A stretch of DNA of 64,000 bases, from positions 17,772 to 81,771 of the forward strand of contig JAWOGF010000050.1 in the NCBI GenBank assembly GCA_046497075.1, in the 5' to 3' direction. A program made the translations under genes and the position numbers. Under the pieces are notes generated by a model. That model did not search any database. It saw nothing but the letters and a program-made list of their open reading frames with translations, and was not told the origin of the DNA. This DNA comes from Candidatus Saliniplasma sp. (lineage in GTDB: Archaea; Thermoplasmatota; Thermoplasmata; Halarchaeoplasmatales; Halarchaeoplasmataceae). Every line of letters begins with the position of its first letter. The first letter of the stretch is position 1. Of this stretch, positions 2,419 through 29,782 are shown in pieces.

Positions 2419-3864
2419 CTAACCTTTTACGAACTCTTTCACCAATCGGATATCCTTCTCACCGATACCTCCTATGGCGTAAAGGAACACGAAGTATAAC
2501 ACTATACCCAGAGGAAGGAGCCAGAGCACAGAGAACTGCAAGTTCAGTAGGATAGGTAAGTAAAGCAGGCCTCCCATCAGCAAACTCGACAGGTATGGCT
2601 TCCATACGTAGGAGATAGGTGCCGGAGATAGATGGGTACTGACTATATGATAATTGAGTAAAAAGTGTGTTATCTCCGCCAAAACGATAGCTACCGCCGC
2701 ACCTTCAGCACCGTATGGAGGTATCAGTAGGACGCCGCACAAGACCAGTACTGTCGAGGCGCCTAACAAATTTTTTGAAGAGTCGAACGTTCTATCACTG
2801 GACCAGAGTACCATCTTCAAACTACCATTCATGAACAGGAAGGGCAGCATCCAGACTATGGTTCTGAAGACCTGTATCGTCTGTTGATACTCTATAGCGT
2901 AAACCAATTCTAAGGCATCTTCAGCGATGACGTAAAGCCCTAACGTTAGTGGGAGAGATAAGATCAATAAAAATCTGAGTGTTTCTAGATAAGCATGCTC
3001 GATTGTATCTTTCCTAGATGTGTACAATCTGGAGAATACTGGATATACCGCCCTTCCGAAGGAATAGGGGACCACCCCTAAAAAGATGATCACCTTCCAA
3101 CTGGCACTATAAACACCTGTAGTAAAGCTATCACTTAAAAACGAAAGTAAAACGATGATGACCTGCCCATATATGACACTCACTGTGATGAAAAGTGTAA
3201 ATGGAGAAGATTTTTTTAAAAGTGGGACCCACCGCTTTAATGAAGGGTTAGTTATCTTTGAATCAGGTAACTTAGATTCATATATCCAAGCTGAAACGAA
3301 CAGATGGATCATGTAAGATATCAGCAGGAAGAGAAGTATTTTGAAAAGATCATAACCTAAGAAGATGGCAGAGATGCCGAGTAAAAGATACAACATCTTC
3401 CATATCAAAGTCGCATAGGCCTGGAGTTCCATTCGTTCCCGGGCTTGAAACTGAGCTGAGAAGGTATTCGATAATTTCTCGAATATCAGCATGGCTATAG
3501 CTACCATCAGGATAGCGTAAGGGATATCGATCTCTAGTCTTAGTAAGACAAAATGATAAACCACTGAAATAAAGAGTATGGTCAGCAAACCTAAAAATAT
3601 CCTCAAGAACAGAATGTCACTCAGATATCCGGACCCTTTATCCGGCTGTCTAGACACCTCCCTGATGGTCATCTCATCTAAACCCCAATCAACGACCACG
3701 GTGAATAGATAAGAAAAGGCTATCACGGCGTTGTATACTCCAAATGAGGAGGGCAGTAGATGATTGGCCAGCAATATGACAAAAACAGCACTGAGGATAC
3801 GGGCGATCATCTGTGCAGAAGTCAGCCATCCGGCGTTCTTTAATACCTTGATAGGGTCGGTCAC
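2419..3864 (-). CDS. MOP-superfamily oligosaccharide flippase (Wzx/RfbX, AglR-like polysaccharide biosynthesis protein)
   Basis: 481 aa polytopic membrane protein of roughly 12-14 TM helices. The N-terminus 'LKNAGWLTSAQMIARILSAVFVILLANHL...FGVYNAVIAFSYLF' is typical of the Polysacc_synt/Wzx family. Confidence 0.7.
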   Translation of the reverse strand: MTDPIKVLKNAGWLTSAQMIARILSAVFVILLANHLLPSSFGVYNAVIAFSYLFTVVVDWGLDEMTIREVSRQPDKGSGYLSDILFLRIFLGLLTILFISVVYHFVLLRLEIDIPYAILMVAIAMLIFEKLSNTFSAQFQARERMELQAYATLIWKMLYLLLGISAIFLGYDLFKILLFLLISYMIHLFVSAWIYESKLPDSKITNPSLKRWVPLLKKSSPFTLFITVSVIYGQVIIVLLSFLSDSFTTGVYSASWKVIIFLGVVPYSFGRAVYPVFSRLYTSRKDTIEHAYLETLRFLLILSLPLTLGLYVIAEDALELVYAIEYQQTIQVFRTIVWMLPFLFMNGSLKMVLWSSDRTFDSSKNLLGASTVLVLCGVLLIPPYGAEGAAVAIVLAEITHFLLNYHIVSTHLSPAPISYVWKPYLSSLLMGGLLYLPILLNLQFSVLWLLPLGIVLYFVFLYAIGGIGEKDIRLVKEFVKG

Positions 3865-5542: not shown

Positions 5543-6166
5543 ATGGGCCGTCCCTCGATAAAATTTTATAAGACTACATCAGTTGTTTCATTGATGAACT
5601 GGATCATACTACTTCTATTTACTTTTGGGATAGTGGCCTTGGCTGAAATCGGAGATAAAACCCAGTTGATGACCATATCTCTCGCTTCAAAATACCATGT
5701 AAAACCTGTATTTTGGGGTATATTTTTAGGTATGGGTCTGATAACCGTAGTAGGGGTAGTTGTAGGTACCGTTTTATACAGCTTTATTCCCCCATATTAT
5801 GTGAAAGTTCTTGCATCACTCATCTTCATCTTTTTTGGAGTGTACTCGCTCTACCAGGAAGAAACCGAAGATGAAGAAGATTTCAGCAGTAAAAAGATAT
5901 TCACTACTTCTTTTTTTCTAGCACTGGTGGCTGAATTCGGGGATAAAACTCAACTGGTTGTCATAGCGCTCACCGCACAGTATGAAGCTCCCATCGTTGT
6001 ACTTCTCGGAGCCCTAGCAGGTCTCGGTCTAGTTATCGGTATCGGTGTTGCCTTCGGTTCAAAATTGACCGAGATTGTAGAAAAAGAAAAGATCGAACTG
6101 GCGGCCTCGCTGTTATTCATCATCGTCGGAGTCATCTCCCTGGTAAATACTCTTTTTTGGGGATAA
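5543..6166 (+). CDS. UPF0016 (GDT1/TMEM165) family putative Ca2+/Mn2+:H+ antiporter
   Basis: It has two E-x-G-D-K-T-Q repeats ('LAEIGDKTQLMTISLA' and 'VAEFGDKTQLVVIALTA') in a 6-TM protein of 207 aa. This is the diagnostic duplicated motif of PF01169. Confidence 0.8.
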   Translation: MGRPSIKFYKTTSVVSLMNWIILLLFTFGIVALAEIGDKTQLMTISLASKYHVKPVFWGIFLGMGLITVVGVVVGTVLYSFIPPYYVKVLASLIFIFFGVYSLYQEETEDEEDFSSKKIFTTSFFLALVAEFGDKTQLVVIALTAQYEAPIVVLLGALAGLGLVIGIGVAFGSKLTEIVEKEKIELAASLLFIIVGVISLVNTLFWG

Positions 6167-6197
6167 ATAATATTATTTCGCTCTGTTATCACCAATC

Positions 6198-6734
6198 ATG
6201 TCTAGGTGGAAATGTAAAGATAGCAGGGTGGTAGCAACCTCTACGTTGTTTACACTCAGAGAAGATGACGTGGTACTAAAGAACGACGTTGAAAAAACAT
6301 ACACTATATTGGATATGCCAGATTTTGCTGGTGTCATCCCCGTCATAGATGATAAACTGGTTATGATCAAGAACTATCGTTACCCAATCGATGAGATGGT
6401 ATTGGAACTACCTGCGGGACTCATAGATGAGGGTGAAAAACCTATCGATACTGCTAGACGGGAACTAAAAGAGGAAACTGGATACGTTTTGAAGGATGCT
6501 GAGAAAATCATAGAATATCACCCAATAGCTAGCCTGAACACTCAAACAGCTCACCTTTTCCTAGGGGAAGCAGAAGAGGGGGCATCGGTGAATAGGGATA
6601 TCGGGGAGGATATCGAAGTTGAATTAATTCCGATCAAAAAAGTATATGAGATGTTAAGAAAAAAAGAGATATCACACCCCCACACTATCATAGCCCTATT
6701 TTACTGTGAAAATGTGTTATGTGAAAGAACCTGA
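6198..6734 (+). CDS. NUDIX hydrolase (ADP-ribose pyrophosphatase-like)
   Basis: The Nudix box is 'GLIDEGEKPIDTARRELKEETGY' (GX5EX7REUXEEXGU). Confidence 0.8.
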   Translation: MSRWKCKDSRVVATSTLFTLREDDVVLKNDVEKTYTILDMPDFAGVIPVIDDKLVMIKNYRYPIDEMVLELPAGLIDEGEKPIDTARRELKEETGYVLKDAEKIIEYHPIASLNTQTAHLFLGEAEEGASVNRDIGEDIEVELIPIKKVYEMLRKKEISHPHTIIALFYCENVLCERT

Positions 6735-6821
6735 GAATTCATGTATTTACTAAAAATAGAATATATTCCAATAAAGACCGAAAATGTTTATAGATAAAAA
6801 TTAATTTCGGAAGGCTTGTTT

Positions 6822-8180
6822 ATGGCAAAGAAGGTAAAAAGCGAGAGCGGTACTATATTTTGTTCATACTGCGGTACCGCCGTGAAAAAAGGGGACGATA
6901 CTTGTCCGAGTTGTGGAGAGGAACTAGAAGAAGAGATCGTAGAGGGAAAAGTATGTCCCGCCTGTGGAAACCCTGTTGAAAGTTTGGATGGATCATGTCC
7001 AAATTGCGGTATAGACCTATCTAAAACACCATCTGAAGCAGACCAAGACGACGAATTCCTTTCTAAACTTCTAGGATGGGGAGACGAGACGGAGGGAGAA
7101 TTAGAAAAGAAGATCGAGGAAAAACGCAAAGCAGTAGAAGTTTTTAAAAAGGTTGCTGGCGGGGAGGGAGGTAGTAAAGAAAGTAAAGAAAGTAAAGAAA
7201 GTAAAGATAGTAAAGATAGTAAAGAAAGTAAAGAAAGTAAAGATAAGAAAGAAAAAGATGAGGTCGAAGTGGAAATATCTTATGACTATATGGTCGAACC
7301 CTTCGAGAAAGTGGTAAATTCCACGGAAGAAAATCTCAACGACATAAAATCTGAAATGGTAAAAGTACGCGAGGAACTCGATGAAGCTGAGGGCAAGGAA
7401 AAAGAAAGACTTCAAGAGAAACTAAAATCATTGGAGAGCAGAAAATCAAGATTCCATAAGATAATATCCAACATCGAAGAGATGGATAGAGCCGTGGAAA
7501 GATTATTGGAAAACCAAAGAATAGAACTCGAGGAAAAACAGGAAGAGCTTAAAGACCGTATCAGAGAATTTAAAAAGGTTGTAAAAAAGAAGGATAAGGA
7601 AAGGGAAAACATCGAAGATAAGAAAAACAAACTGGAGGAAAAAGAAGAAAAACTAAAAGAGAGAGAGATGAAACTCAGCGTTTGGGAGGAAAACCTGAGG
7701 AAGAAGGAAAAGGAGTTAGAAGCTGAGGTAGGCCAATACAAAGAAAGCGAGGAGACTCTTGAAAAGATCGAGGAGGATATGCCAGAAGAGGGAAAGGTTA
7801 CCAAAGAAGAATGGTTAGAGGAACAAAAGAAGATCCAGAAAGAACTGTTCGATCTGAAAGATATGTGGGATGATGAAGAGGAAACGATAGATATCAGCGA
7901 AGACTCGATACCGGTAGTAAAAAAGAAACTTAAGGAGAAAGAAGAACTCTGGAAAAAAAAGATCAAGGACCTCAAAGAAGAGTTGGATGAAGTTCGTAAA
8001 GAAAAAGAAAAGATGAGAGAAAAAACCCTCGAGATGGATGTTAAACAAGAAGAGGTGGAGACCATATTATCCGTACTAGATGATCTACTAGGTAATTTAC
8101 CAGATGAACGTATCCATGAATTTGCAAAATCCAAGCATTTTGAACTTTATGAGAAGGTATTGGATGCTTTCGATGTATAA
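6822..8180 (+). CDS. Double zinc-ribbon plus (SKE)n low-complexity plus coiled-coil protein
   Basis: The N-terminus has 'CSYCGTAVKKGDDTCPSCG' and 'CPACGNPVESLDGSCPNCG' (two C-x2-C...C-x2-C ribbons). Then comes SKESKESKESKDSKDSKESKESKD, followed by about 300 aa of E/K/L heptad-rich sequence. ATG at 6822 is preferred over the upstream TTG. TATA-like 'TTTATAGATAAAAATT' lies about 30 bp upstream. Confidence 0.75.
   Translation: MAKKVKSESGTIFCSYCGTAVKKGDDTCPSCGEELEEEIVEGKVCPACGNPVESLDGSCPNCGIDLSKTPSEADQDDEFLSKLLGWGDETEGELEKKIEEKRKAVEVFKKVAGGEGGSKESKESKESKDSKDSKESKESKDKKEKDEVEVEISYDYMVEPFEKVVNSTEENLNDIKSEMVKVREELDEAEGKEKERLQEKLKSLESRKSRFHKIISNIEEMDRAVERLLENQRIELEEKQEELKDRIREFKKVVKKKDKERENIEDKKNKLEEKEEKLKEREMKLSVWEENLRKKEKELEAEVGQYKESEETLEKIEEDMPEEGKVTKEEWLEEQKKIQKELFDLKDMWDDEEETIDISEDSIPVVKKKLKEKEELWKKKIKDLKEELDEVRKEKEKMREKTLEMDVKQEEVETILSVLDDLLGNLPDERIHEFAKSKHFELYEKVLDAFDV
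7173..7244 (+). repeat. Perfect 9-bp tandem repeat (AGTAAAGAA/AGTAAAGAT) x8, encoding (SKE/SKD)n inside the zinc-ribbon/coiled-coil gene
   Basis: Direct reading gives eight contiguous in-frame 9-nt units. Confidence 0.85.
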
Positions 8181-8192
8181 GGAGTAATAGAC

Positions 8193-11100
8193 ATGGGACT
8201 CAGAGAAAAGGCGAAGAAGGCACTAGAAGAAGAGGAAAAAACCTCTGAAGAACTAGAAAAGGAGGAAGAAAGAGTTGAAGATCTGGAGAAAGATATAAAA
8301 GAACTGGAGGAACGCAGATCCGAACTCGAGGATATTGTAAGTGGATTAGAAGATGAAAAGGAAGGACTTGAAGAGAAGAAAAAGGAATTCGAAAATGTTA
8401 AGGAACGGATCAAAGAATCTGTTGAAAGAAAGCAGGAACTTGAAGAGAATATCCAAAAGCTTGAATCGAGATATGAAGAACTAAAATCCAAAAGAGAAGA
8501 ATTTGAAGAGTTGGCAGAAGAGTACGATGAGATTCAGCAGAAAAAGGAGAGTCTTGAAGAGGAGATCGATGAGCTACAAGGTACAAAAGATGAACTTTCG
8601 GAGAGTAAGGAGGAAGTCGAAGAATCTAAAGAAAGATTAGAAGGGGAGATCGAAGAACTGGAAAATAGAAAAGATGAACTTATAGAAAGTGAAGAAGAAT
8701 TAGAGACGGTGAAAGAAGATGTTGAAGAGCTTATACAAAAGAGAGAAACACTTGAAGAGGATATCGAGGAGTTAGAGAAGGGAAAAGAAGAACTCACGAC
8801 CTCAAAAGAGGAATTGGAGGAGAAATCAGAGAAGCTCGATAAAAGGATGAAAGAATTGGAAAAAGAAAAGGAGAGATTGGAAGAGGATAAAGGGGAGATA
8901 GAGGAACTAAAAAAGGAATTAGAAGAAAAAAGGAAGATATTAGAAGAGGAAGAGAAAAAATTCGAAGAGCGAAAGGAAGAACTAGATGGGAAAGAAAAAG
9001 ATTTAAATGAAAAAGAAAAAAGGTTACAACAGAAAGAACAAGGGTTAGAGGATAAAGAACAAGGGTTAGAGGATAAAGAACAAGATATAGATGAAAGGAT
9101 CAGCGAATTGAACGAGAGAGAGGAAGAACTCAAAAAACTCAAGAAAAGTATCGACGGTAAGAAAGGTGCTCTACAGAGATCCAAGAATAAATTGGAAGAA
9201 CAGGAAGAAAAACTGGAGGAACGGAAAAAGGAGCTTGAGAAGAAAGAAAAAGATTTGAGGGAAGAACTCAAAAAAGAACTCCTTGAAGAGAAAAAAGAGG
9301 AATTGGAATCGCTGGAGGCTTCTTTGGAAGAGAAAAGAGATGAGGAAGAACAGCTGGAAGAAAAAATACAGGATTATAGTGAGAGAATAAATGAAATAGA
9401 GGAGAGGGAAGAAGAATTAGATGAAAAAGAGGAAGAACTGAAGCAGAAGGATAATGAACTGGTGGAACGGAGTTCTCTCCTGGATGATAGGGAACAGGGT
9501 ATCGAAGAGAAAGAAGAAAAGATAGATGAAGCAGAAGAAAAGTTGGCAGAATTGGAGGACAAAGATACAAAACTGGAAGAGTGGCACGGGGAACTAGAGG
9601 ATAAAGAAGAAACATTGGATGAGAAAAAAACAGAACTAACTAATCTCGAAAAAACCCTTGAAGATAAAGAAGTGAAGATCGAAGAGAAGGAAGAGGATCT
9701 AGAAGCAAAGGAAGATAGATTATCCGAAAAAGAAAATGAACTAGAAGATAAATCAAAAGAATTAGAAGAAAGGGAAAACAAGATCGATGAAAGATTGTCG
9801 AAGGTGGAACAGAGGGAAGAAGAGATAGAAGAATTAAAGGATTCCCTCGCTAGTAAAGAAGAAGAGCTAGAATCAAGAGAAGAAAATTTAGAGGAAAAAG
9901 AAGATGAGTTAGATAGGTTAGAGGGAGATCTAGAAAAGAGGCGTCAAGAAGTAACTGATACTGAAGCAAGTCTTGAACAAAGGGAAGAAGAATTGATCGA
10001 TTGGGAAGAGGAGATAGAGGCAAGGGAGGAAGATGTATCTGAGGAAAGAACGAGGTTAGAAGAAAAAGATGATGAGTTGGACCAGAAAGAGAAGGAATTA
10101 AAAAAATTGGAAAATGAACTGGAAGATAGAGAGGAACGGTTGGAGAGTTTAGAAGACGATCTGGATGAGGTGCAAAAAGAGCTCGTAGACCGGGAAGAAA
10201 ACATAAGAACCAAAGAGAAGGATTTAGAAGAAAAGGAAGAGGAACTGCAAAATTTCGAAGCCGAGCTTCAAGGATGGGAAGATAATCTAAAATCAAAAGA
10301 GGAAGATTTGGATACAAAAGAATCCGAGCTTCAAGGATGGGAGGAGGACTTAAAGGAAAAGGAGGGTGGATTGGACACTAGAGAAGAAGCGATAAATGAG
10401 AGAGAAGTAGAGCAGGACGAACTGGAAGACACCCTACAGGAAAGAAAAGAAGAACTAGGTAAAAAAGAGAATCACCTGATCGAATGGGAAGCAGAAGTGG
10501 AAGAGAGAGAGAAAAAATTGGATGAGCTTCAGAAAGAACTTGAAGGTAAAGAAGAAAATCTAGATACTATAGAGGATGAACTAGATGAGCGAACTTCAAA
10601 GGTGGAACAGCAGGAAAAAGAGTTAGAGGATAGAGAAGAAAAGATCGATGAAAGAGAAAAGACACTCAACGAAAAAGAAGATGAATTGGACCAGAAAGAG
10701 AGCGAGATAGAAGCAGAAAGAGATGAACTGGAAGAAGAAAAAGAAGGACTGCTCCAATTACGTGAGGAACTGAATAAATTTGATGACACTCTCGATGAGA
10801 AGCAGAAAGAGTTGGAGGGTGAGAGGAGTGAATTCGAAGACAAAGTGGAGATCAAGGAAGAGGAGCTAAGAAAAGAAAGGTCGTCTCTGGAAGAGAAGAA
10901 AGAACTACTAGCTGAAAAAGAAGAAAAGTTGAGTGATCTTGAGAAAGACCTATCGCAGAGAGAGGGGCGCGTATCTAAAAAAGAGAATACTTTGGACGAA
11001 TTAAAAGAGGAGCTAGGTGAAAGAGAAAGGGAAGTAAAAGAAAGGGAGAATGGACTAGACTTACTCCAAGAGGAATTAGAGGATTGGAGAGATGAGTTAT

Positions 11101-12230
11101 CTAATAAGGAAAAAGAACTAGAAAAAGAGAAAGAAGAGCTCAGAGAAAAAGTGAAAGATCTGCAGGAAAAAGAAGCTAAAATCTCTGAAAGAGAAGAAAT
11201 GGTGGAGGAAGAGTTAGAAAAAGTTGAAAGTGAAAGGGACGAACTATCCGAGATGTGGACTAAAATTGGAAGAAAGATGGAAGATGTCGAGGGCAGGGAA
11301 GAGAAACTAGAAAAGGAGCACTCGGACTTAGTGATAAAAAAAGATGAACTGAAAAGGAAAGAAAGAGATTTGGATGAAAGGGAGGGGGTTATCGAAGAGA
11401 AGGAAAAAGAGTTGTCTAAAAAAGAGGAGGGGCTAGAAAAAGAGATAGATGAAGTGGCTAGAGAGATGGAAAAGGCCCGATCCTGGAGTCAGACCGCCCT
11501 CGACAAAGAAGAGGAACTCAAATCATGGGAGTCTGATCTAGAAGATTGGGAAGAGAAACTAGGGGATAGAAGAGAAAAGCTCGAGGAGGAACGTGATGAA
11601 ATCGAAGAACTGCTTGATGAACTGCCAAATAGGGTAGAAGAGGTCGAAGAGAGGGAAGAAGAAGTAATAGAAAGGGAGAAAGAGTTGGATGAGGAAAAAG
11701 AAAAGTTAAAGGCCATTAAAACAGATTTATCAGAAAGGGAAGAAGAACTTGAAGAAGAAAAAGAGCACGTTCAGGAGATCAAAGAAAGTGCATTGAACAT
11801 GATGCAGTATGCAAAATCAAAGAAAGCTCGGGAAGATAAAAAACTGAGAGAAGATATCCAGCAGGAACGTGAGAAATTGGAAAGAGAGAGAAGAAAACTC
11901 GAAGAAGAATTGGCTCAGAAGGAAAAGAATTTAAAGCAAAAGGATAAGAAGCTGGAAAAGAAGAAAGAAAGATTGATGGAAAAGGCTGAAGCCTTGGAAG
12001 AAAAGGAAAAGGAAGTTGAACAGAAACAGCAGAATATAAAAGATGAGAGAGATAAACTTTCTGAGATGTGGTCGGAGATTGAAGAGGAATCGATGAAGAT
12101 GGAGGAATTCAAAGAGCGGGAAAGGGAGATCGAAGAACGTGAGAAAAAGTTAGAGGAAAAAGAAAATCAGTTAGAAAAGAAGAAAGAAAGGATCGAAAAG
12201 ATGAAAAAGCATCTAGATGATCTTCTGTGA
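8193..12230 (+). CDS. Giant (1345 aa) E/K-rich continuous coiled-coil protein
   Basis: The sequence is heptad-patterned throughout (…LEEKEKELEEK…). There is no recognisable globular, ATPase or TM domain. The ORF starts 12 bp after the previous ORF and is probably co-transcribed. Internal near-duplicate segments exist (for example 'QGLEDKEQGLEDKEQ' and 'ELQGWE…ELQGWE'). Confidence 0.8.
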   Translation: MGLREKAKKALEEEEKTSEELEKEEERVEDLEKDIKELEERRSELEDIVSGLEDEKEGLEEKKKEFENVKERIKESVERKQELEENIQKLESRYEELKSKREEFEELAEEYDEIQQKKESLEEEIDELQGTKDELSESKEEVEESKERLEGEIEELENRKDELIESEEELETVKEDVEELIQKRETLEEDIEELEKGKEELTTSKEELEEKSEKLDKRMKELEKEKERLEEDKGEIEELKKELEEKRKILEEEEKKFEERKEELDGKEKDLNEKEKRLQQKEQGLEDKEQGLEDKEQDIDERISELNEREEELKKLKKSIDGKKGALQRSKNKLEEQEEKLEERKKELEKKEKDLREELKKELLEEKKEELESLEASLEEKRDEEEQLEEKIQDYSERINEIEEREEELDEKEEELKQKDNELVERSSLLDDREQGIEEKEEKIDEAEEKLAELEDKDTKLEEWHGELEDKEETLDEKKTELTNLEKTLEDKEVKIEEKEEDLEAKEDRLSEKENELEDKSKELEERENKIDERLSKVEQREEEIEELKDSLASKEEELESREENLEEKEDELDRLEGDLEKRRQEVTDTEASLEQREEELIDWEEEIEAREEDVSEERTRLEEKDDELDQKEKELKKLENELEDREERLESLEDDLDEVQKELVDREENIRTKEKDLEEKEEELQNFEAELQGWEDNLKSKEEDLDTKESELQGWEEDLKEKEGGLDTREEAINEREVEQDELEDTLQERKEELGKKENHLIEWEAEVEEREKKLDELQKELEGKEENLDTIEDELDERTSKVEQQEKELEDREEKIDEREKTLNEKEDELDQKESEIEAERDELEEEKEGLLQLREELNKFDDTLDEKQKELEGERSEFEDKVEIKEEELRKERSSLEEKKELLAEKEEKLSDLEKDLSQREGRVSKKENTLDELKEELGEREREVKERENGLDLLQEELEDWRDELSNKEKELEKEKEELREKVKDLQEKEAKISEREEMVEEELEKVESERDELSEMWTKIGRKMEDVEGREEKLEKEHSDLVIKKDELKRKERDLDEREGVIEEKEKELSKKEEGLEKEIDEVAREMEKARSWSQTALDKEEELKSWESDLEDWEEKLGDRREKLEEERDEIEELLDELPNRVEEVEEREEEVIEREKELDEEKEKLKAIKTDLSEREEELEEEKEHVQEIKESALNMMQYAKSKKAREDKKLREDIQQEREKLERERRKLEEELAQKEKNLKQKDKKLEKKKERLMEKAEALEEKEKEVEQKQQNIKDERDKLSEMWSEIEEESMKMEEFKEREREIEEREKKLEEKENQLEKKKERIEKMKKHLDDLL

Positions 12231-21241: not shown

Positions 21242-21418
21242 TATACCACCAGGAATGGTATAGCGAAGTGAGTATAAGTTTTTCGGGCAGAACTGAAAAT
21301 CTCTCTTAGAAAATTATTTATCGACCTTTTCTTTTAGGAGGGTTGTAGGCGGCTCGTTGGTTTTATATACCACCTGCTTTTAAGATGAGCACGTGAAGCG
21401 TTTTCAAAATCGCATCTA

Positions 21419-21517
21419 GCTCCCGTGGTGTAGTCCGGCCAATCATCTCGGCCTTTCGAGGCCGATAAAACCGGCCAAAGACAGCCGATCACTCGGGTTC
21501 GAATCCCGACGGGAGCA
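21419..21517 (+). tRNA. tRNA-Glu(UUC) with a 24-nt intron at the canonical 37/38 position (approx 21460-21483)
   Basis: The acceptor stem is GCUCCCG/CGGGAGC with discriminator A. The anticodon arm is UCGGC-CUUUCGA-[intron]-GCCGA. The variable loop is UCAC. The T-arm is UCGGG-UUCGAAU-CCCGA. The mature length is 75 nt and the sequence closely matches canonical archaeal tRNA-Glu. A duplicated GCCGA segment inside the intron is consistent with a bulge-helix-bulge substrate. Confidence 0.8.
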
Positions 21518-21567
21518 TTTTTACTTTCTTTTAAAAATCCGTACGGAGGGATGAGAACCTCGGTTCT

Positions 21568-21587
21568 TAAGGAATTATAATTCCTTA
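21568..21587. repeat. Perfect 20-bp palindrome TAAGGAATTATAATTCCTTA
   Basis: Seen directly. It lies between the tRNA and the tRNA 3'-end repeat. Confidence 0.7.
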
Positions 21588-21618
21588 TCTCACTCACCAG
21601 GTGTGCCTCGGGACGTGA

Positions 21619-21639
21619 GTCTATTTTCAAAAAATAGAC
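21619..21639. repeat. Palindrome GTCTATTTT-CAA-AAAATAGAC (9-bp arms)
   Basis: Seen directly. It lies between the tRNA and the tRNA 3'-end repeat. Confidence 0.7.
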
Positions 21640-21677
21640 GAACGGTTAGAATAAGAACGAAGTGAATATTCTGAGCA

Positions 21678-21700
21678 GAATCCCGACGGGAGCATTTTTA
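21678..21700 (+). repeat. Direct repeat of the tRNA-Glu 3' end (GAATCCCGACGGGAGCATTTTTA), a putative att-site copy
   Basis: The 23 nt are identical to 21501-21523 (tRNA T-loop/acceptor 3' half plus 6 nt of trailer). It is not part of a second tRNA. Confidence 0.65.
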
Positions 21701-21846
21701 CATAAAGTTGGATTCTCCTTCCATCACTATTCTTCTTTTCCAGTAGATGGATCAATATTCTCATAATTACAGAAAACCTAATAACACAAGAGAGGGTTTT
21801 GACTCATGGGTTTTAAATATAAAAAACAGGTATCGTTGATTTGTAT

Positions 21847-23487
21847 ATGCTGATCAATGTAGAAAGTCTGGATAAAACCATACGAGGTAGGAAGCTATTG
21901 AAGGATGTTTCTTTCACTATAATGGAGGGAGAAGGAGTTGGATTTATAGGTCCAAATGGGGAAGGAAAATCTACACTACTGGACATAATCACAGGTAAAG
22001 ATAGCTATTACACGGGAAGTGTAAAAATAAAGAACGGAATTTCCTATTCTTACCTTACTCAAGATATTAGTCTAAGAAATAAGAAAACTGTCGAAGAAGA
22101 ACTCGAAGATGTCGAGGACCCAAATATAGATAAAGTAAAAGAACTCGAAAGATATTCAAAGCTTCTTGAAGAGGATTCAACAGAGGATCAATCTTTAGAA
22201 GTGGCCAAAAAATATTCAGAATTGATGAACGAGATCCATGAGGAGAAAACTGGCAGTTCTAAAGGTATCGCCAAGAATATCCTGATCGAAGACTTTGATT
22301 TCGATGAAGGTATGCTGGATAGAAAGATCGGAACTCTAAGCGGTGGAGAAAAAAGGAAGGTCGAGTTGGCAAACTTTTTCTCTAAATACAAGGATGTAGA
22401 CCTCTTCATAATGGATGAACCTACGAACCATCTAGATCTTGAAGCGAAGAAATACTTTGAAAAGTATATCAACGACTTTAATGGAAGTTATTTTATGGTA
22501 GAACACGACAGGGAATTGCTTGATAACACCGTAGAAAAAATATTGGAGTTGGATGATGGTGAAATAGAAGTATATCATGGAAACTACTCTGATTATGAGA
22601 AGAAAAAAAAGACCCGGACAGTGAACAAACAAATGAAACTTGACCGACTTGAAAAGAAGGTCAAAAGCGAGAAAGAAGCTATCAAGAACTTAGAACTTAA
22701 GGCTAGCGGCGGAGGGGACTATATCAAAAAAGATAGGGTAAGAAGATTGAAAGGGTTAAAGAATAAAAGGGACCGACTGCAAAATGAACTGAGAGCAGAT
22801 GAAGTAGATATCAACCTGAATTTAAAAAAGACACCCGAGGAGTATACTCTTCTAGAAGTTAAAAAATTGACCAAAAGTTACGATGAGTTCGTCTTTGAAA
22901 ACATCACATTCGATATGAAACCTGGAAAAAAGATAGCATTGGTCGGACCTAATGGTTCGGGAAAATCCACATTACTAGAAATAATCTTTGGGAACAATAG
23001 TCCAGACTCCGGAAATGTCGAAGTGGGTAAAAAAACGAAGATAGGTTATCACGCTCAAGAATTTACCCCAGCAAGCGAAGATTATGTAGTACTTGACGAT
23101 ATCTGGGATAAAACCTACGGTGAGCATAGACCGATAACTCACACTACACATCACCTTTCTAAGGAAAAGGAAGAGAAACTAAGGAATTATCTAGGTGGTT
23201 TTGGTTTTACGGGAGATGATGTTTTTAAAGAGGTCTGCGAGCTAAGTGGCGGTGAAAAGACCTTGCTTTCCGTGGCTGAGATGATGTATGGCGGCTGTAA
23301 TCTTATTCTACTGGACGAACCCACCAATAACTTAGACATTGAAAAAAGAAAAAAATTGGAGGAATCTATCAAAGATTATGAAGGCGGTGTTCTTCTAGCA
23401 TCTCATGATAGAAGATTTATAAAAAACGCTTTAGACGAGGCTTGGAGCATCAAAAGAAGTGAGATCGAAAGCTACGTTCTAGATTGA
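21847..23487 (+). CDS. ABC-F-type tandem-NBD ATPase (no transmembrane domain)
   Basis: Two ABC cassettes carry Walker A 'GPNGEGKST' and 'GPNGSGKST' and signatures 'LSGGEKRKVELA' and 'LSGGEKTLLSVA'. A basic/coiled linker 'KKKKTRTVNKQMKLDRLEKKVKSEKEAIKNLE' lies between them. The start may be TTG 21841 or ATG 21847. The TATA-like 'TTTAAATATAAAAAAC' lies about 30 bp upstream. Confidence 0.8.
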   Translation: MLINVESLDKTIRGRKLLKDVSFTIMEGEGVGFIGPNGEGKSTLLDIITGKDSYYTGSVKIKNGISYSYLTQDISLRNKKTVEEELEDVEDPNIDKVKELERYSKLLEEDSTEDQSLEVAKKYSELMNEIHEEKTGSSKGIAKNILIEDFDFDEGMLDRKIGTLSGGEKRKVELANFFSKYKDVDLFIMDEPTNHLDLEAKKYFEKYINDFNGSYFMVEHDRELLDNTVEKILELDDGEIEVYHGNYSDYEKKKKTRTVNKQMKLDRLEKKVKSEKEAIKNLELKASGGGDYIKKDRVRRLKGLKNKRDRLQNELRADEVDINLNLKKTPEEYTLLEVKKLTKSYDEFVFENITFDMKPGKKIALVGPNGSGKSTLLEIIFGNNSPDSGNVEVGKKTKIGYHAQEFTPASEDYVVLDDIWDKTYGEHRPITHTTHHLSKEKEEKLRNYLGGFGFTGDDVFKEVCELSGGEKTLLSVAEMMYGGCNLILLDEPTNNLDIEKRKKLEESIKDYEGGVLLASHDRRFIKNALDEAWSIKRSEIESYVLD

Positions 23488-23591: not shown

Positions 23592-24494
23592 ATGCAAAAA
23601 GGAAAAATATTTGATATAAAGCAGTTCGCTGTACACGACGGACCCGGGGTGAGGACTACTGTTTTCTTCAAAGGCTGCCCTCTTAACTGCTGGTGGTGCC
23701 ACAACCCCGAAAGTATCGATGAAAACGACGAGCTGTTTTTCTACGGATCCATGTGTATGGCCTGTGAAGATTGTGTGAGTACCTGTACCGAAGATGCTAT
23801 CCAAAAAAAAGATGGAAAAATAATCATCGATAGAATGAAGTGCAATCTGTGCGGTCGATGCGCCGAGGTTTGTCCAACCGCCTCCTTGAGATTGGTGGGT
23901 AAAACTGTTACAGTCGATGAAGTGATGTCCGAGATTAAAAAGTCTAGAATTTTTTTCGACAGCTCAAAGGGAGGTGTTACGCTGTCAGGAGGAGAACCAT
24001 TCCACCAATACGAATTTATGAAAAACCTGATAGAAGCGTGCAAGGATGAGGATATACACGTAACACTGGATACCTGCGGACACGTTAAAAAAGAATATTT
24101 TAATGCCGTTATCGATGATGTTGACCTATTCTTATTCGATTTGAAGTTGATCGACGATAAACTACACAAGAAATATACAGGGATCTCAAACAAGAATATC
24201 TTGAAAAACCTTAGAAATCTACTAGGTACCAAGGGAAAGGATGTGATAATAAGATTCCCGGTTATCCCAGGAGTCACCGATACGGAAGAAAATATCGAGA
24301 ATCTGATGAATTTCTTATCCCATTTCAAAAGTATCTTAGAGATCGATTTATTACCATACCACGATGTAGAAGGAAAATTCGATAAACTGGGGAAAGAATA
24401 CAGGCTTCCTCCCTTATCCATTTCCAACGGGAAGTTAAAAGATATAAAAAGAAGGTTTGAATCGAAAGGTTACCGGGTGAAAATAGGTGGTTAG
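23592..24494 (+). CDS. Glycyl-radical enzyme activating enzyme (radical SAM, PFL-AE family with extra ferredoxin-like insert)
   Basis: The radical-SAM motif is 'CPLNCWWCHNPE' (CxxxCxxC). Two extra Cys clusters 'CMACEDCVSTC' and 'CNLCGRCAEVCP' are typical of activases for PFL2-type GREs. Confidence 0.85.
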   Translation: MQKGKIFDIKQFAVHDGPGVRTTVFFKGCPLNCWWCHNPESIDENDELFFYGSMCMACEDCVSTCTEDAIQKKDGKIIIDRMKCNLCGRCAEVCPTASLRLVGKTVTVDEVMSEIKKSRIFFDSSKGGVTLSGGEPFHQYEFMKNLIEACKDEDIHVTLDTCGHVKKEYFNAVIDDVDLFLFDLKLIDDKLHKKYTGISNKNILKNLRNLLGTKGKDVIIRFPVIPGVTDTEENIENLMNFLSHFKSILEIDLLPYHDVEGKFDKLGKEYRLPPLSISNGKLKDIKRRFESKGYRVKIGG

Positions 24495-26918
24495 ATGGAT
24501 AACATAATGTCATGTAGTTTAGGAAGGGAAGAAGAGATAGAGGCCAGGAGGTCCTCCATAAAGCCCATCAACGAGAGGATAAAAAGATTGAGAGAGGAAA
24601 GTGTTGAAGGGGCGGTAACGGTGTCATCTGAAAGGGCTGAACTAATAACCGATTTTTACAAAAACGTGGATCTAAAAGATCATTCTGTACCGGTTCAACG
24701 AGCTTTAGCTTTCAAACATTTGATGGAAAATGTTAGCATCCCGGTCGAAAAAGGTCAACTTATTGTAGGGATACGGGGAACTGGAGTGAAAGAGGTACCG
24801 ACCTACCCCGAAGTCTGCTGTCATAAAAAAGAAGATCTCGATGTCCTAGATTCTCGAGAAAACAACCCCTATAAGGTAGATAAAAATACAGAAGAGAGTT
24901 ATGCCAAAGAAATCATCCCGTTCTGGGAAGGGAAAACGATACGGGAGAAAATATTCGACAGGATGAGTGAAGAGTGGAAAGACGCCTATGAGGCTGGTGT
25001 CTTCACTGAATTCATGGAACAAAGAGTACCTGGCCATACATCAGGCGGGGAAAAAATATTCTCTACAGGACTGCTGGAAATAAAAAAAGAGATCCAAGAA
25101 AAAAAGTCTGATGAACAACTGAAAAGCAGAAAACTCGAAGAATTAAAGGCTATGGAGATAACGATAGATGGTATGATATCTTATGCTGAGAGGTACGCGG
25201 ATAAATTGGAAATGATGTCTGCAAAACATGAAGATAAAACCAGAAAAGAAGAACTCAAGTATATGTCTAAAATATGTAGAAAAGTTCCAAAGCATCCGCC
25301 GGATACATACTGGGAGGCCCTACAGCATTACTGGTTCATTCACGTCGGTATCACCACTGAGTCAAATCCGTGGGATTCTTTCAACCCGGGTAGACTTGAC
25401 CAGCACCTTTATCCATTCTACCAAGATGGGATCGAAAACGGTGTTTTGGATAAAAGGAGGGCTAAAGAACTTCTAGAAGCATTTTGGCTCAAATTCAATA
25501 ATCAGCCAGCACCTCCAAAAGTAGGTGTCACCGCCCAGGAAAGCAATACCTATAACGATTTTTCTAAGATCAACATAGGAGGGGTCGATAAAGATGGTTT
25601 TAACGGTGTGAATGAGATCTCTTACCTATTATTGGAAACATTAGAGGATATGAGAACCCTCCAACCGAACACGGCGGTGTTGATCAGCAAGAAGGCCCCA
25701 GATAAGTTTTTGAATAAAGCCCTAGAAGTAGTAAAACCGGGTTTCGGGGAACCTCCCTTTTTCAATCACGATGAGATCATCAAGATATTGTTGAGGCAGG
25801 GTAAAGAATTAAAGGACGCAAGGACCGGCGGGGTCAGCGGATGTATTGAGACCGGTGCATTCGGGAAGGAAAGCTACATACTCACTGGTTATTTTAACCT
25901 ACCTAAAGTATTAGAGATCACGCTTCACAACGGGATTGATCCTATGAGCGGGAAGAAAATAGGATCGAAAACCGGTGAGGTAAAAAATTTTGATACGTTT
26001 TCAGAACTGTTCCAGGCTTTCAAAGAACAACTGAGATATTTTATCGATGTCAAGGAGAAGGGTAACGATACGATAGAAAAAATTTATCACGAGGAGCTAC
26101 CCGTACCTTTCTTATCGTTGTGGATAGAAGATTGTGTGGAAGAAGGAACAGATTATAACAGCGGTGGGGCTCGCTACAATACCCAATATATACAGATGGT
26201 GGGTCTCGGAACGATCGTGGATTCGCTTTCCTCGGTAAAATTCAATATTTTCAACAAAAACAGGTATGATTTTGAGAAAGTGATGACCGCATTGGAAGAA
26301 AACTTCGAGACAGAAGAGCGGATGCGTCAGGTATTCATCAACAAGACTCCTAAATATGGAAACGATAACGATTACGCCGACGACATCGCAAAGAAACTCT
26401 TCGACACATGTATAGATATCGTAGAGAGTTACCCCCCTTCTCCCATAAGAAAGGCATCTAGACGAGTTTACGGACTTCCTACCACAGTTCACGTTTACTT
26501 TGGAAGTATGTGTAAGGCTACACCCGACGGAAGGAAATCCGGAGAGCCTCTTTCGGAAGGTATATCCCCTGTACAGGGTGCCGACAGAAAGGGTATAGGA
26601 GCAGTATTTCGATCTGTAGGAAAATTGGATCATGTCAAATCCGGCGGGACCCTGTTGAACCAAAAGTTATCCCCGGATCTTATCAATGACGAGGAGGTTA
26701 GAAAAAAGCTGGGGGCCTTGATGAGAGGGTACTTCAAGATGGATTCACATCACGTCCAGTATAACGTTGTGAGCACCGAGCTGTTGAGAGAAGCTCAGGA
26801 AAATCCGGACGAGTTCAGGGATCTTATGGTCCGGGTTGCTGGGTACAGTGACTATTTTGTAAATCTTCCAAAGGGTTTACAAGAAGAGATAATAGAAAGG
26901 ACCGAGCAGAATGGATGA
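24495..26918 (+). CDS. Glycyl radical enzyme, PFL2/PflD/glycerol-dehydratase-like family
   Basis: 807 aa. The C-terminal glycyl-radical motif is 'MVRVAGYSDYFVNL'. The single active-site Cys loop is 'GGVSGCIETG' (the dehydratase/lyase-type GCxE rather than the PFL CC dyad). It is adjacent to the activase. Confidence 0.85.
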   Translation: MDNIMSCSLGREEEIEARRSSIKPINERIKRLREESVEGAVTVSSERAELITDFYKNVDLKDHSVPVQRALAFKHLMENVSIPVEKGQLIVGIRGTGVKEVPTYPEVCCHKKEDLDVLDSRENNPYKVDKNTEESYAKEIIPFWEGKTIREKIFDRMSEEWKDAYEAGVFTEFMEQRVPGHTSGGEKIFSTGLLEIKKEIQEKKSDEQLKSRKLEELKAMEITIDGMISYAERYADKLEMMSAKHEDKTRKEELKYMSKICRKVPKHPPDTYWEALQHYWFIHVGITTESNPWDSFNPGRLDQHLYPFYQDGIENGVLDKRRAKELLEAFWLKFNNQPAPPKVGVTAQESNTYNDFSKINIGGVDKDGFNGVNEISYLLLETLEDMRTLQPNTAVLISKKAPDKFLNKALEVVKPGFGEPPFFNHDEIIKILLRQGKELKDARTGGVSGCIETGAFGKESYILTGYFNLPKVLEITLHNGIDPMSGKKIGSKTGEVKNFDTFSELFQAFKEQLRYFIDVKEKGNDTIEKIYHEELPVPFLSLWIEDCVEEGTDYNSGGARYNTQYIQMVGLGTIVDSLSSVKFNIFNKNRYDFEKVMTALEENFETEERMRQVFINKTPKYGNDNDYADDIAKKLFDTCIDIVESYPPSPIRKASRRVYGLPTTVHVYFGSMCKATPDGRKSGEPLSEGISPVQGADRKGIGAVFRSVGKLDHVKSGGTLLNQKLSPDLINDEEVRKKLGALMRGYFKMDSHHVQYNVVSTELLREAQENPDEFRDLMVRVAGYSDYFVNLPKGLQEEIIERTEQNG

Positions 26919-28003: not shown

Positions 28004-29782
28004 TCAATCCAAATCCTCAGTTGATAATACTTCCATCTCTCTTTCTAAGATACTTATCTGCCTTTCTTTCAGTGCGGATGGGCTCACGGTTATCAAAAGC
28101 AAAGAGTCTGTTTCCGATATGATGTCTATCATATGTCTGAGGAACTGGATAGTTGCATCAAAACCCGTATTACTTATCAAATATTCAATACCGTCTAGCA
28201 AAATGACCTTCCCTTCATCTATTATCTCTTCAAGTCTGTATGTTATACTCTCTAGGTTGGGACGAATTGTTTCTAGATTTTCGCTGTCTCTACCGGTCAA
28301 CCAGTACATCTCTGCTCCATCAAGGGAATATTCTTTAAGTATCCTATTGGGATTTAGACGGGAGATGATATAGATCTGATTCTCTTTGCGCAGTAGATCT
28401 TCTAACATCCTAAATCCTTTATCGGGACGTTCTTCCTCTATTATATAACTGATTCCGGGCTCGAGTTCATTAGTTATATCAGCTTTAGGTCCCTCTTCCT
28501 CACTTTCGATTTTGTTTCGAAAACTCTTTTTAACAGTCTCCAACGTGATCTCTTCGTTTAAGAGAGAGGAAAAAGCCAATAATCGGTTGATAGCTCCTTC
28601 GATCTCTCTTACATTTTTAGTGATATGGGTGGCTAAGAATTCTTTTACATCTACAGGCACATCCACTCCTTTTTGTTCAATTTTCCGTTCTATGATTTTT
28701 AATCTATTTTCATAGGGGGGAGGGTCGATACTGATAACAAGTCCTGATTTAAACCTAGATACTAATCTTTCTTTAATATCTGGGATCTCCTCCGGAGGTC
28801 TATCACACGTAAATATTATCTGTCGGCCTTCTGTAGTGAGATGATTGAACAGGTAGAATATTATCTCTTGATGTTTCTCTCTACCAGCTAAGAATTGGAT
28901 ATCATCAAGGAGCAGTAAATCAGTATCATAATATTTCTCTCTCACGTCCTTAGAGGTCTCATCTTTTAAGCTCTGTATCAGATCTGCAGTACAGTTTTCC
29001 GTCGTGGAATATACGACATCCAACTCCGGATGATTCTTCCTTGTATAATGTCCGATTGCCTTTAGAAGATGTGTCTTACCCATGCCTGAACCGCTTGTCA
29101 GTACTAAGGGATTGAAGGATCTTCCAACACCCCGAGCTACTTCTCTTGATGCGACATAAGCTAATTTATTATTCTCCCCTACTACAAAATTATCAAAGGT
29201 ATATCTCTCTGGAAATATACTGTCCTCTATTTTTTTCCCCTGCCTTTCTTTTATGATCATATCGTAAACTTCGAGTTCTTTCTCATCCATATCATCACGA
29301 GTTATCTGTTCTTCGATTTCTTTTGATTCAGCAGATATCTCCTCCTCGGTCTCCTCGGAAACCGTTTCCTGCAGACTTTTTGTCTCGTCCCCAACCTGTT
29401 CTAGCATCTCGATTACATCTTCCTCAAAATCGGGAGTCTGTTCAGAGATATTTTCATCGAGTTGGCCGCCTACATCTTTGATCAGTTTGTCGATGTCTAC
29501 CTTTGTATGAACCTCAAGATAAAGTTCCTCTTTATCATCTAAACTTAGTATCTTTTTGTACGCATCCTCACCGGATATCTCCATATCTGATGGGGTATAT
29601 AGAAGAGCATTTTTTGGTGTTCCATCTTTCAATGTGATATAACCCTCAAGCTCTTCGTCCACGGTTACCCGAATATAACCACGGAATGAATACTTTTCGA
29701 GCTTTTCTAGGGTCTTAGAAAGTTTTCCAGGACCTTTTTTATCCTGTATCTTTAATCCTTCGGGGAACTTTTTTCTTGACAA
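28004..29782 (-). CDS. DnaA-type AAA+ ATPase with a DUF4388-like N-terminus and a DUF835-like C-terminus, lacking the DnaA DNA-binding domain IV
   Basis: The core aligns colinearly with bacterial DnaA domain III. Matching segments are 'YTFDNFVVGENNKLAYVASREVA', 'GSGMGKTHLLKAIGH', 'LLLLDDIQFLAGREKHQEIIFYLFNHL', 'IIFTCDRPPEEI…RLVSRFKSGLVISIDPP' and 'NVREIEGAINRL'. The C-terminal 150 aa ('…VILLDGIEYLISNTGFDATIQFLRHMIDI…LLLITVSP…') fits the archaeal DUF835 pattern. The N-terminal 100 aa ('FRGYIRVTVDEELEGYITLKDGTPKNALL…ISGEDAYKKIL') is DUF4388-like. Confidence 0.8.
   Translation of the reverse strand: MSRKKFPEGLKIQDKKGPGKLSKTLEKLEKYSFRGYIRVTVDEELEGYITLKDGTPKNALLYTPSDMEISGEDAYKKILSLDDKEELYLEVHTKVDIDKLIKDVGGQLDENISEQTPDFEEDVIEMLEQVGDETKSLQETVSEETEEEISAESKEIEEQITRDDMDEKELEVYDMIIKERQGKKIEDSIFPERYTFDNFVVGENNKLAYVASREVARGVGRSFNPLVLTSGSGMGKTHLLKAIGHYTRKNHPELDVVYSTTENCTADLIQSLKDETSKDVREKYYDTDLLLLDDIQFLAGREKHQEIIFYLFNHLTTEGRQIIFTCDRPPEEIPDIKERLVSRFKSGLVISIDPPPYENRLKIIERKIEQKGVDVPVDVKEFLATHITKNVREIEGAINRLLAFSSLLNEEITLETVKKSFRNKIESEEEGPKADITNELEPGISYIIEEERPDKGFRMLEDLLRKENQIYIISRLNPNRILKEYSLDGAEMYWLTGRDSENLETIRPNLESITYRLEEIIDEGKVILLDGIEYLISNTGFDATIQFLRHMIDIISETDSLLLITVSPSALKERQISILEREMEVLSTEDLD

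Follow-up and report, generated by a model that had tools for sequence, protein, structure and literature searches.

A conserved, hairpin-rich module between two copies of a tRNA-Glu 3' end in a halophilic archaeon: a candidate relic of integrase activity

Why should the 3' end of a tRNA gene recur, letter for letter, a short distance downstream of that gene, with two palindromes lying in between? The question is raised by the tRNA-Glu locus of a 64,000-nucleotide stretch of archaeal DNA ('the window'), which comes from a little-known halophilic lineage of the Thermoplasmatota. A first-pass annotation of this DNA had pointed to the attachment-site (att) signature of integrase-mediated insertion into a tRNA 3' end, and had named as possible outcomes a scar, a miniature non-autonomous element, or a second att copy whose partner lies farther away. 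The explanation favoured here, to which we give roughly even chances, is that an ancient, integrase-made duplication encloses a fixed, non-autonomous, att-flanked module.

The gene itself, a tRNA-Glu(UUC) on the forward strand (21419-21517), is the single tRNA encoded in the window. It is interrupted at position 37/38 by a 24-nt intron (21459-21482), which separates exon 1 (21419-21458) from exon 2 (21483-21517), and the CCA of its 3' end is not encoded. [quoted passage not shown] The motif is canonical (helix-bulge-helix-bulge-helix), with 3-nt bulges (CG|A and AC|A), a central helix of 4 bp (CUUU/AAAG) and an energy of -16.7 kcal/mol, against -17.9 for the minimum free energy (MFE) fold, and with its 37/38 intron in such a motif the gene belongs among the intron-containing tRNAs of archaea. 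A duplicated GCCGA within the intron, proposed at first reading as a possible aid to BHB formation, was judged essentially rightly, and corresponds to the intron's own 5-bp helix (GGCCG/CGGCC). Directly 3' of the tRNA lies a T-rich spacer (21518-21532, forward strand), in which a T5 run is followed by T3 and T4 runs, and which we take to be a likely archaeal oligo-T termination signal.

The direct repeat is real, and is one nucleotide longer than the 23 nt originally ascribed to it: the exact repeat, GAATCCCGACGGGAGCATTTTTAC, measures 24 nt and occurs on the forward strand at 21501-21524 (copy 1) and 21678-21701 (copy 2), with a start-to-start spacing of 177 and with 153 nt between the copies. 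When up to 3 mismatches were allowed, the 64 kb yielded these 2 matches only (0 being expected from shuffles), and the window likewise contains no 23-mer beyond the two first described. Each copy is composed of a 17-nt core, GAATCCCGACGGGAGCA (21501-21517 and 21678-21694), followed by the trailer TTTTTAC. The core begins in the 3' half of the T-loop, takes in the 3' strands of the T-stem and acceptor stem and ends at the discriminator A73; it holds an 11-bp palindrome, TCCCGACGGGA (21504-21514 in copy 1). One copy of a tRNA 3' segment thus completes an intact tRNA while the other stands alone, as in the att duplications made by integrases, and copy 2 is a potential secondary att site.

Both perfect palindromes reported between the copies are present, namely a 20-bp palindrome, TAAGGAATTATAATTCCTTA, with arms of 10+10 (21568-21587), and a hairpin, here called P3 (21619-21639), in which GTCTATTTT (21619-21627) and AAAATAGAC (21631-21639) are separated by CAA. 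These lie within a more extensive fold, of which all elements are given on the forward strand. An inverted-repeat search identified a segment (21532-21552) whose complementarity to each of the two repeat copies is 71%; within it, a 5' arm, AAAAATCCGTACGGAGGGAT (21533-21552), is complementary to copy 2 (and also to copy 1) apart from purine-purine mismatches that are conserved (GUA/GGA and GA/GA), and forms with copy 2, as the 3' strand, a closing stem both in the MFE fold and in RNAalifold. A consensus computed by RNAalifold from the window and three relatives that are described below (L004, L017 and L110) recovers the closing stem together with two further hairpins, P2 (GAACC-TC-GGTTC, 21555-21566) and P4 (GGTTAGAAT ... 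ATTCTGAGC, 21644-21676). P3 is flanked by GTGAG and CGAAC, which supply a tandem G·A frame.

Comparison of the four sequences indicates how these elements have changed. Purine loops that are symmetric (GNA/GGA and GA/GA) have been retained in the closing stem, and a mutation of G to A in the core of L017 is matched by a change of C to U in its 5' arm. P2 is kept in L004, L017 and L110, with compensatory changes in its apical and basal pairs; a U·G wobble in P4 is common to the window, L004 and L110; and the site of P3 is occupied by hairpins in the relatives too, with a sequence that differs by lineage. The 20-bp palindrome TAAGGAATTATAATTCCTTA lies within an insertion of ~48 nt that is found in the window and L004 only and is missing from L017 and L110. 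Double-sided changes affect 5 of the 27 consensus pairs, a count that is drawn from four independent sequences only (window, L004, L017 and L110) and that quasi-palindrome correction is able to imitate; moreover, because the core is palindromic (TCCCGACGGGA), the 'complementary' arm also resembles the core, and may be a degenerate direct copy of it. The single-sequence fold of the window insert has a z-score of -3.1, and the duplexes of the 5' arms have weak z-scores (-1.1 for the window and -1.7 for L004). The insert is conserved at ~75% amino-acid host divergence, at which the upstream intergenic DNA cannot be aligned by eye. Such conservation, together with the compensatory changes, would be unexpected for a dead scar; the insert is an old, conserved, hairpin-rich non-coding module rather than a live mobile element. 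As a separate observation on the palindrome TAAGGAATTATAATTCCTTA, an independent Logan assembly (L001) begins in the middle of it, with its position 1 at window 21582, which probably reflects a break in the assembly or its graph and not biology.

A number of other identities for the insert were considered and rejected. Its short forward-strand reading frame differs between the window and L004 through indels, and a 98-aa minus-strand ORF overlaps the tRNA. A box C/D sRNA is contradicted by sequence (AUGAGAA is not a C box, RUGAUGA; CUGA stands 4 nt from the stem; C' and D' boxes are absent) and by size, the unit being ~160 nt long as against ~50-70 nt for the class. For a hammerhead ribozyme, a split or permuted tRNA, or a T-loop intron, either the defining motifs are absent or copy 1 already completes the tRNA. 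A MITE or IS-derived miniature element was set aside on the grounds that the insert is single-copy in the window and has no real counterpart in viral contigs, metagenomes, plasmids or phages. A module-specific pattern, TTCTGANNNGAATCCCGACGGGA, had no match in viral contigs and 1 match in metagenomes, in unrelated, coding-like sequence; plasmid and phage collections had no match to the module; and the 17-mer core, searched in viral contigs, returned only a chance coding-region match and a bacterial tRNA.

The arrangement of tRNA, insert and core is old, being shared with two sister species and with a genus-level relative. In L004/L005, the same tRNA with the same intron is followed by a homologous insert that is 91.5% identical to that of the window, and by a second core; in L017, whose aminotransferase is 91.5% identical to the window's, the homologous insert is shorter and terminates in GAATCCCGACGGGAACA. 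The genus-level relative is a single MAG in which the locus is spread over separate contigs: L027 encodes an aminotransferase 75% identical in amino acids to that of the window, and L110 carries 3 tandem, near-identical units of 185 bp, each made up of one module A, which is of window type, and one shorter module B, with a core at the end of every module. As to presence and absence among related genomes, the tRNA-insert-core arrangement is present in the window, L004/L005, L017 and the L110 MAG; its presence in relatives, like the lack of an integrase nearby, is among the outcomes that the first-pass annotation had named as telling against its reading. It is absent in L143, an 83%-aa relative in which the T-stem of tRNA-Glu differs (a diverged core), there is no extra core and synteny is broken. 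More distant relatives identified through ABC-F (P0003, P0005, P0008-P0010 and P0013) do not have that gene beside tRNA-Glu, and are hence uninformative.

The modules do not follow their hosts. L004 and L017, with hosts that are 96% identical (aminotransferase), have modules that are 71% identical and differ by a 54-nt indel, whereas L017 and L110, with hosts that are 75% identical by the same gene, have modules that are 83% identical; judged from these sequence comparisons, the module variants appear not to track the host tree. The cores of other lineages (L033, L061, L062, L071 and L077/L112) enclose inserts of unrelated sequence, many with an inverted partial core and hairpins and some with neither. 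A search of genome contigs with the 17-mer gave at least 119 loci, and extra cores downstream were counted at 9 of 31 Thermoplasmatota tRNA-Glu loci, as against 1 of 24 loci of other tRNAs (Fisher p = 0.03), a count biased by the choice of loci for containing the core. For searches of GTDB and metagenomes, a paired-core pattern is proposed: CCCGACGGGAGCA, with copies <600 nt apart.

What links the core to integrases is its use, at the same position and with the same extent, by elements that do encode one. L138 contains a 6.5-kb element (integrase, HTH protein and terminase) flanked by a 16-nt repeat, AATCCCGTCGGGAGCA, one copy of which is the end of a tRNA-Glu(CTC) gene, with identity from the T-loop to A73; the window core agrees with this att core at 15 of 16 bases. 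A 415-aa tyrosine recombinase is encoded in L110 (PF00589, 2e-18); it carries a zinc ribbon at its C-terminus, shares 64% identity with the integrase of L138 and is divergently oriented from the module array, which lies directly upstream of it; Orc1/Cdc6-like and TIR-domain genes then follow. The family is large and archaeal, with 2651 homologues at E < 1e-10, and a search for the L110 integrase in viral contigs gave no confirmed locus. A third member (42% identity), in L114, lies 53 nt from an isolated fragment, GTTCGAATCCCGACGGGAGCA. The core is flanked by conserved element arms, GGGAATACGAACCC and GGGGTTCGTATTCCCC, one to each side, and in L027 the syntenic aminotransferase is followed by tRNA-Glu and then by an arm of the element's P' type. 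An integrase/Orc1 element thus appears to have inserted into the syntenic tRNA-Glu of the genus-level relative, in a reconstruction that joins L027 and L110 by inference; the arm after the L027 tRNA-Glu would place the L110 element between that tRNA and the module array, and the modules would then belong to the chromosome and predate the insertion. Between the insert and the arms P and P' no homology was detectable, which argues against the insert being a simple collapsed copy of an element of that family. The TIR-domain protein of the L110 integrase/Orc1 element (494-1492, minus strand) may represent defence cargo.

The att signature first proposed is accordingly upheld in one respect, since the core is that of a real integrase family, and not in another, since no integrase or element is left here: between the copies lie 153 non-coding bases, and the 40 long ORFs scanned with Pfam, which cover most of the window, show housekeeping genes, with no recombinase, transposase or PF00589 integrase found, so that the nearby integrase envisaged at the outset is lacking among them. 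Of the outcomes originally listed, a scar or miniature non-autonomous element fits best, an equivalent core being used by the L138 and L110/L027 elements. Partial tRNA genes created by integration are well documented in the Thermococcaceae, where repeats of ~44 bp surround 9-23 kb (PMC9897764). The present locus resembles integrative elements of tRNA genes in that a direct repeat of the tRNA 3' end, one copy of which completes the gene, has a core reaching from the T-loop to the 3' end; it differs from them in that 17-24-nt repeats enclose only 153 bp, an integrase is missing, and the insert is conserved and structured. Identity of the repeat also runs 7 nt beyond the tRNA end in the window, while that of L138 stops at A73. 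The module may also be likened to non-autonomous, att-flanked remnants of the kind termed CIME-type elements.

Under the favoured explanation, an ancient duplication around a fixed module, the second tRNA-Glu 3' end would be an att-type duplication produced by site-specific recombination with a tyrosine-integrase element, the core site of the integrase being the stretch of tRNA-Glu from T-loop to discriminator. The order tRNA(core)-insert-core would have been left by an integration in an ancestor, or by the capture of a small segment with an att site; any coding part that the element may once have had would since have been lost, and the remnant, a non-autonomous module of 153 bp flanked by att cores, would now be passed on by vertical inheritance. 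Its two direct cores may remain substrates for integrase-mediated or homologous recombination, and this would explain both the tandem amplification in one relative and the incongruence between modules and host tree. The retention of the shape of the insert (closing stem plus three hairpins) points to exaptation: the insert has probably been exapted, most plausibly as a structured RNA that would be transcribed by read-through from the promoter of the tRNA.

The alternatives can be weighed against the same evidence, beginning with a very improbable one, in which copy 2 would delimit a large integrated island on one side, with the downstream genes for ABC-F, a glycyl-radical enzyme (GRE) and a DnaA-like protein as its cargo. 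The GRE (PFL-like, 807 aa) and its radical-SAM activase (23592-26918) do form a variable gene slot, which speaks for such an island, and in L004/L005 and L017 the pair is replaced by an unrelated 389-aa protein without a Pfam match, between the same flanking genes. The surroundings of that slot tell against it. A partner copy farther away, with the whole block on an island between, would require a third core, which is absent from the 64 kb, and an integrase, which is missing among the ORFs scanned; base composition is flat across the region; and the sister L004/L005 shares the order of fibrillarin, aminotransferase, tRNA-Glu, ABC-F and later DnaA-DUF835 and Na/Ca exchanger, with amino-acid identities to the window of 86% for ABC-F and 92.6% for the aminotransferase. 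Because the sisters have ABC-F, DnaA-DUF835 and the Na/Ca exchanger in synteny with the window, the downstream block is not an island bounded by the repeat, and this option is refuted. The ABC-F protein of the window is itself 100% identical to that of a MAG named Candidatus Saliniplasma sp. A mobile mini-cassette, moved in trans by an integrase in the manner of a cis-mobilisable element or of an integron cassette with a folded attC-like site, is unlikely rather than refuted. Recombination between its direct cores would excise a circle of module plus core that could re-insert at any core, and the three near-identical A+B units of L110, which end in cores and diverge from an adjacent integrase gene, would fit such traffic, as would the incongruence of module variants with hosts (83% for L017/L110, 71% for L004/L017) and the conservation of structure with variable sequence. 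Yet no other copy is found in the window, among viral contigs or in collections of plasmids and phages, and the single metagenome match lies in unrelated sequence; the L110 array resembles the tandem duplication of one unit and not separate acquisitions, and is probably chromosomal and distal to the inserted element; and a circle of ~180 bp is a poor recombination substrate.

A tentative but serious possibility is that the insert and copy 2 constitute a small structured RNA gene of a tRNA-Glu operon, as an archaeal analogue of the RtT RNA of E. coli. It would be made by read-through from the tRNA promoter, its ends would be set or stabilised by RNase P, tRNase Z and perhaps CCA addition in the style of t-elements, and the use of copy 2 by integrases as an att core would be secondary. 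In tyrT of E. coli K-12, the last 19 nt of tRNA-Tyr recur at a spacing of 178 nt and RttR ends on the first copy, and in the Rfam consensus of RtT (RF00391) a 5' arm paired with the tRNA-end copy closes the structure. Window and E. coli have this architecture in common: a unit 3' of the tRNA and on the same strand, ending in an exact copy of the tRNA from T-loop to 3' end, whose 5' arm and end copy close a multi-hairpin fold, with a period of ~178 nt and the possibility of tandem repetition. To our knowledge no integrase is involved in the tyrT repeats, and by analogy this same architecture would count against the main, integrase-based reading. The retention of the closing stem, P2 and P4 through compensatory changes and the shared U·G wobble favours an RNA, as do alignment cells with G·U as against A·C (~10 to 2, favouring an RNA of the forward strand), the fold z-score of -3.1 and the conservation of the module at ~75% amino-acid host divergence. 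Further precedent lies in the t-elements of Haloferax, which are substrates of RNase P and tRNase Z (PMC4326828). As in t-elements (the element upstream of Haloferax 5S rRNA, and those of plant mitochondria), the 3' strand of the acceptor and T-stem is paired with an upstream complement, and the modelled closing stem could thus present a minihelix to both enzymes; unlike theirs, the helix is broken by 3x3 and 2x2 purine loops, and ~125 nt occupy the position of the T-loop. Against an RNA gene stand an oligo-T run (T5 or longer) between tRNA and 5' arm in the window, L017 and L110 unit A1, with T4 and T6 runs at that place in L004, and no conserved promoter ahead of the 5' arm. Module interiors are unrelated across lineages, and several extra cores have no 5' arm; the covariation comes from only four independent sequences, and, the core being palindromic, may reflect degenerate direct copies or quasi-palindrome correction; and the arm duplexes score weakly (-1.1 and -1.7). 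No Rfam family matches the insert, RtT included: the RF00391 covariance model had no match at E <= 10 in 21300-21850, while the four E. coli copies score 133-138 bits. The two systems also differ in tRNA, in domain of life and in the lack of a Tpr-like ORF here. The integrase-made relic and the RNA gene overlap, as a relic can be exapted. A broader proposal, which we consider doubtful, joins the two, and would make the insert a member of an undescribed Thermoplasmatota class of structured non-coding modules 3' of tRNA-Glu, each with a helix between 5' arm and tRNA-end copy. These would be the archaeal counterpart of RtT (tRNA-operon sRNAs with ends set by tRNA-processing enzymes, and with tandem G·A motifs that may bind protein) and at the same time secondary att sites for tRNA-Glu integrases, which would act on the modules and amplify them.

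Sequence homology of the insert to RtT was considered separately and set aside as marginal: a local match of 14/16 (GGAGGGATGAGAACCT / GGAAGGATGAGAAGCT) lies at the equivalent place, is equalled by 18 of 1000 shuffles, and is absent in L110. Another short identity is that of window 21549-21560, GGATGAGAACCT, with 12 consecutive positions of the Rfam RtT consensus (GGAUGAGAAcCU); it is statistically marginal, and is placed as in RtT, immediately 3' of the closing helix's 5' strand, and in both CUGAG precedes the tRNA-end copy. The transcription and processing of RtT have been demonstrated in E. coli, in original experiments that PMC3318445 cites.

If the main reading holds, the kind of feature is an ordinary one, the footprint of integration into a tRNA, in an unusual state: miniature, ancient, conserved and structured. 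Annotators would gain from it a defined core, GAATCCCGACGGGAGCA with its palindrome TCCCGACGGGA, by which to recognise att sites of a large archaeal integrase family, and the locus warns against taking every small tRNA-end repeat for the border of an island. If instead the insert is an RNA gene, archaea would have their first analogue of RtT, and the locus would hint at how tRNA-linked repeats arise; were the broader class real, the origin of RtT-type repeats would be linked to integrase crossover in the T-loop. So far as we are aware, the function of RtT has been obscure since 1991.

Some minor observations concern the surroundings of the locus. Homology between the window and L004 stops right after copy 2 (window 21702-21800; L004 5745-5890), where L004 and L017 have a minus-strand ORF of ~46 codons with a hydrophobic stretch (by eye); most of this ORF seems to have been deleted from the window, and the break may be due to that. 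The DnaA-like gene encodes a 592-aa protein (28004-29782, minus strand) in which a bacterial-type DnaA ATPase domain (PF00308, 2e-57) is fused to DUF835, and its position is conserved in L004, L005 and L017. At window 6000-12000, both GC skew and AT skew reach extreme values (~+0.5) over a 1345-aa ORF (8193-12230), the coding strand of which is thus very purine-rich.

Comparable oddities occur at other tRNA loci. In L021, a Methanobacteriota MAG, the last 12 nt of tRNA-Thr(GGU) and 4 nt of trailer recur 672 nt downstream (470-1230), and the copies flank an apparent gene for a small RRM-type RNA-binding protein (by eye), so that the locus is a possible mini-islet at another tRNA. L068 contains, between tRNA-Gln and tRNA-Glu, a pseudo-tRNA (3314-3388) that consists of the first 16 nt of tRNA-Glu (GCTCCCGTAGTGTAGG), 51 unrelated nt and then CGGGAGCA. 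On the reverse strand of L143, ~120 nt upstream of tRNA-Glu, a leader (…AAGTTCC…TCGCAAATTAC…CGTAATTT) is tandemly duplicated together with tRNA bases 1-5 (GCTCC), and a similar duplication of the 5' part of a tRNA is present in L060.
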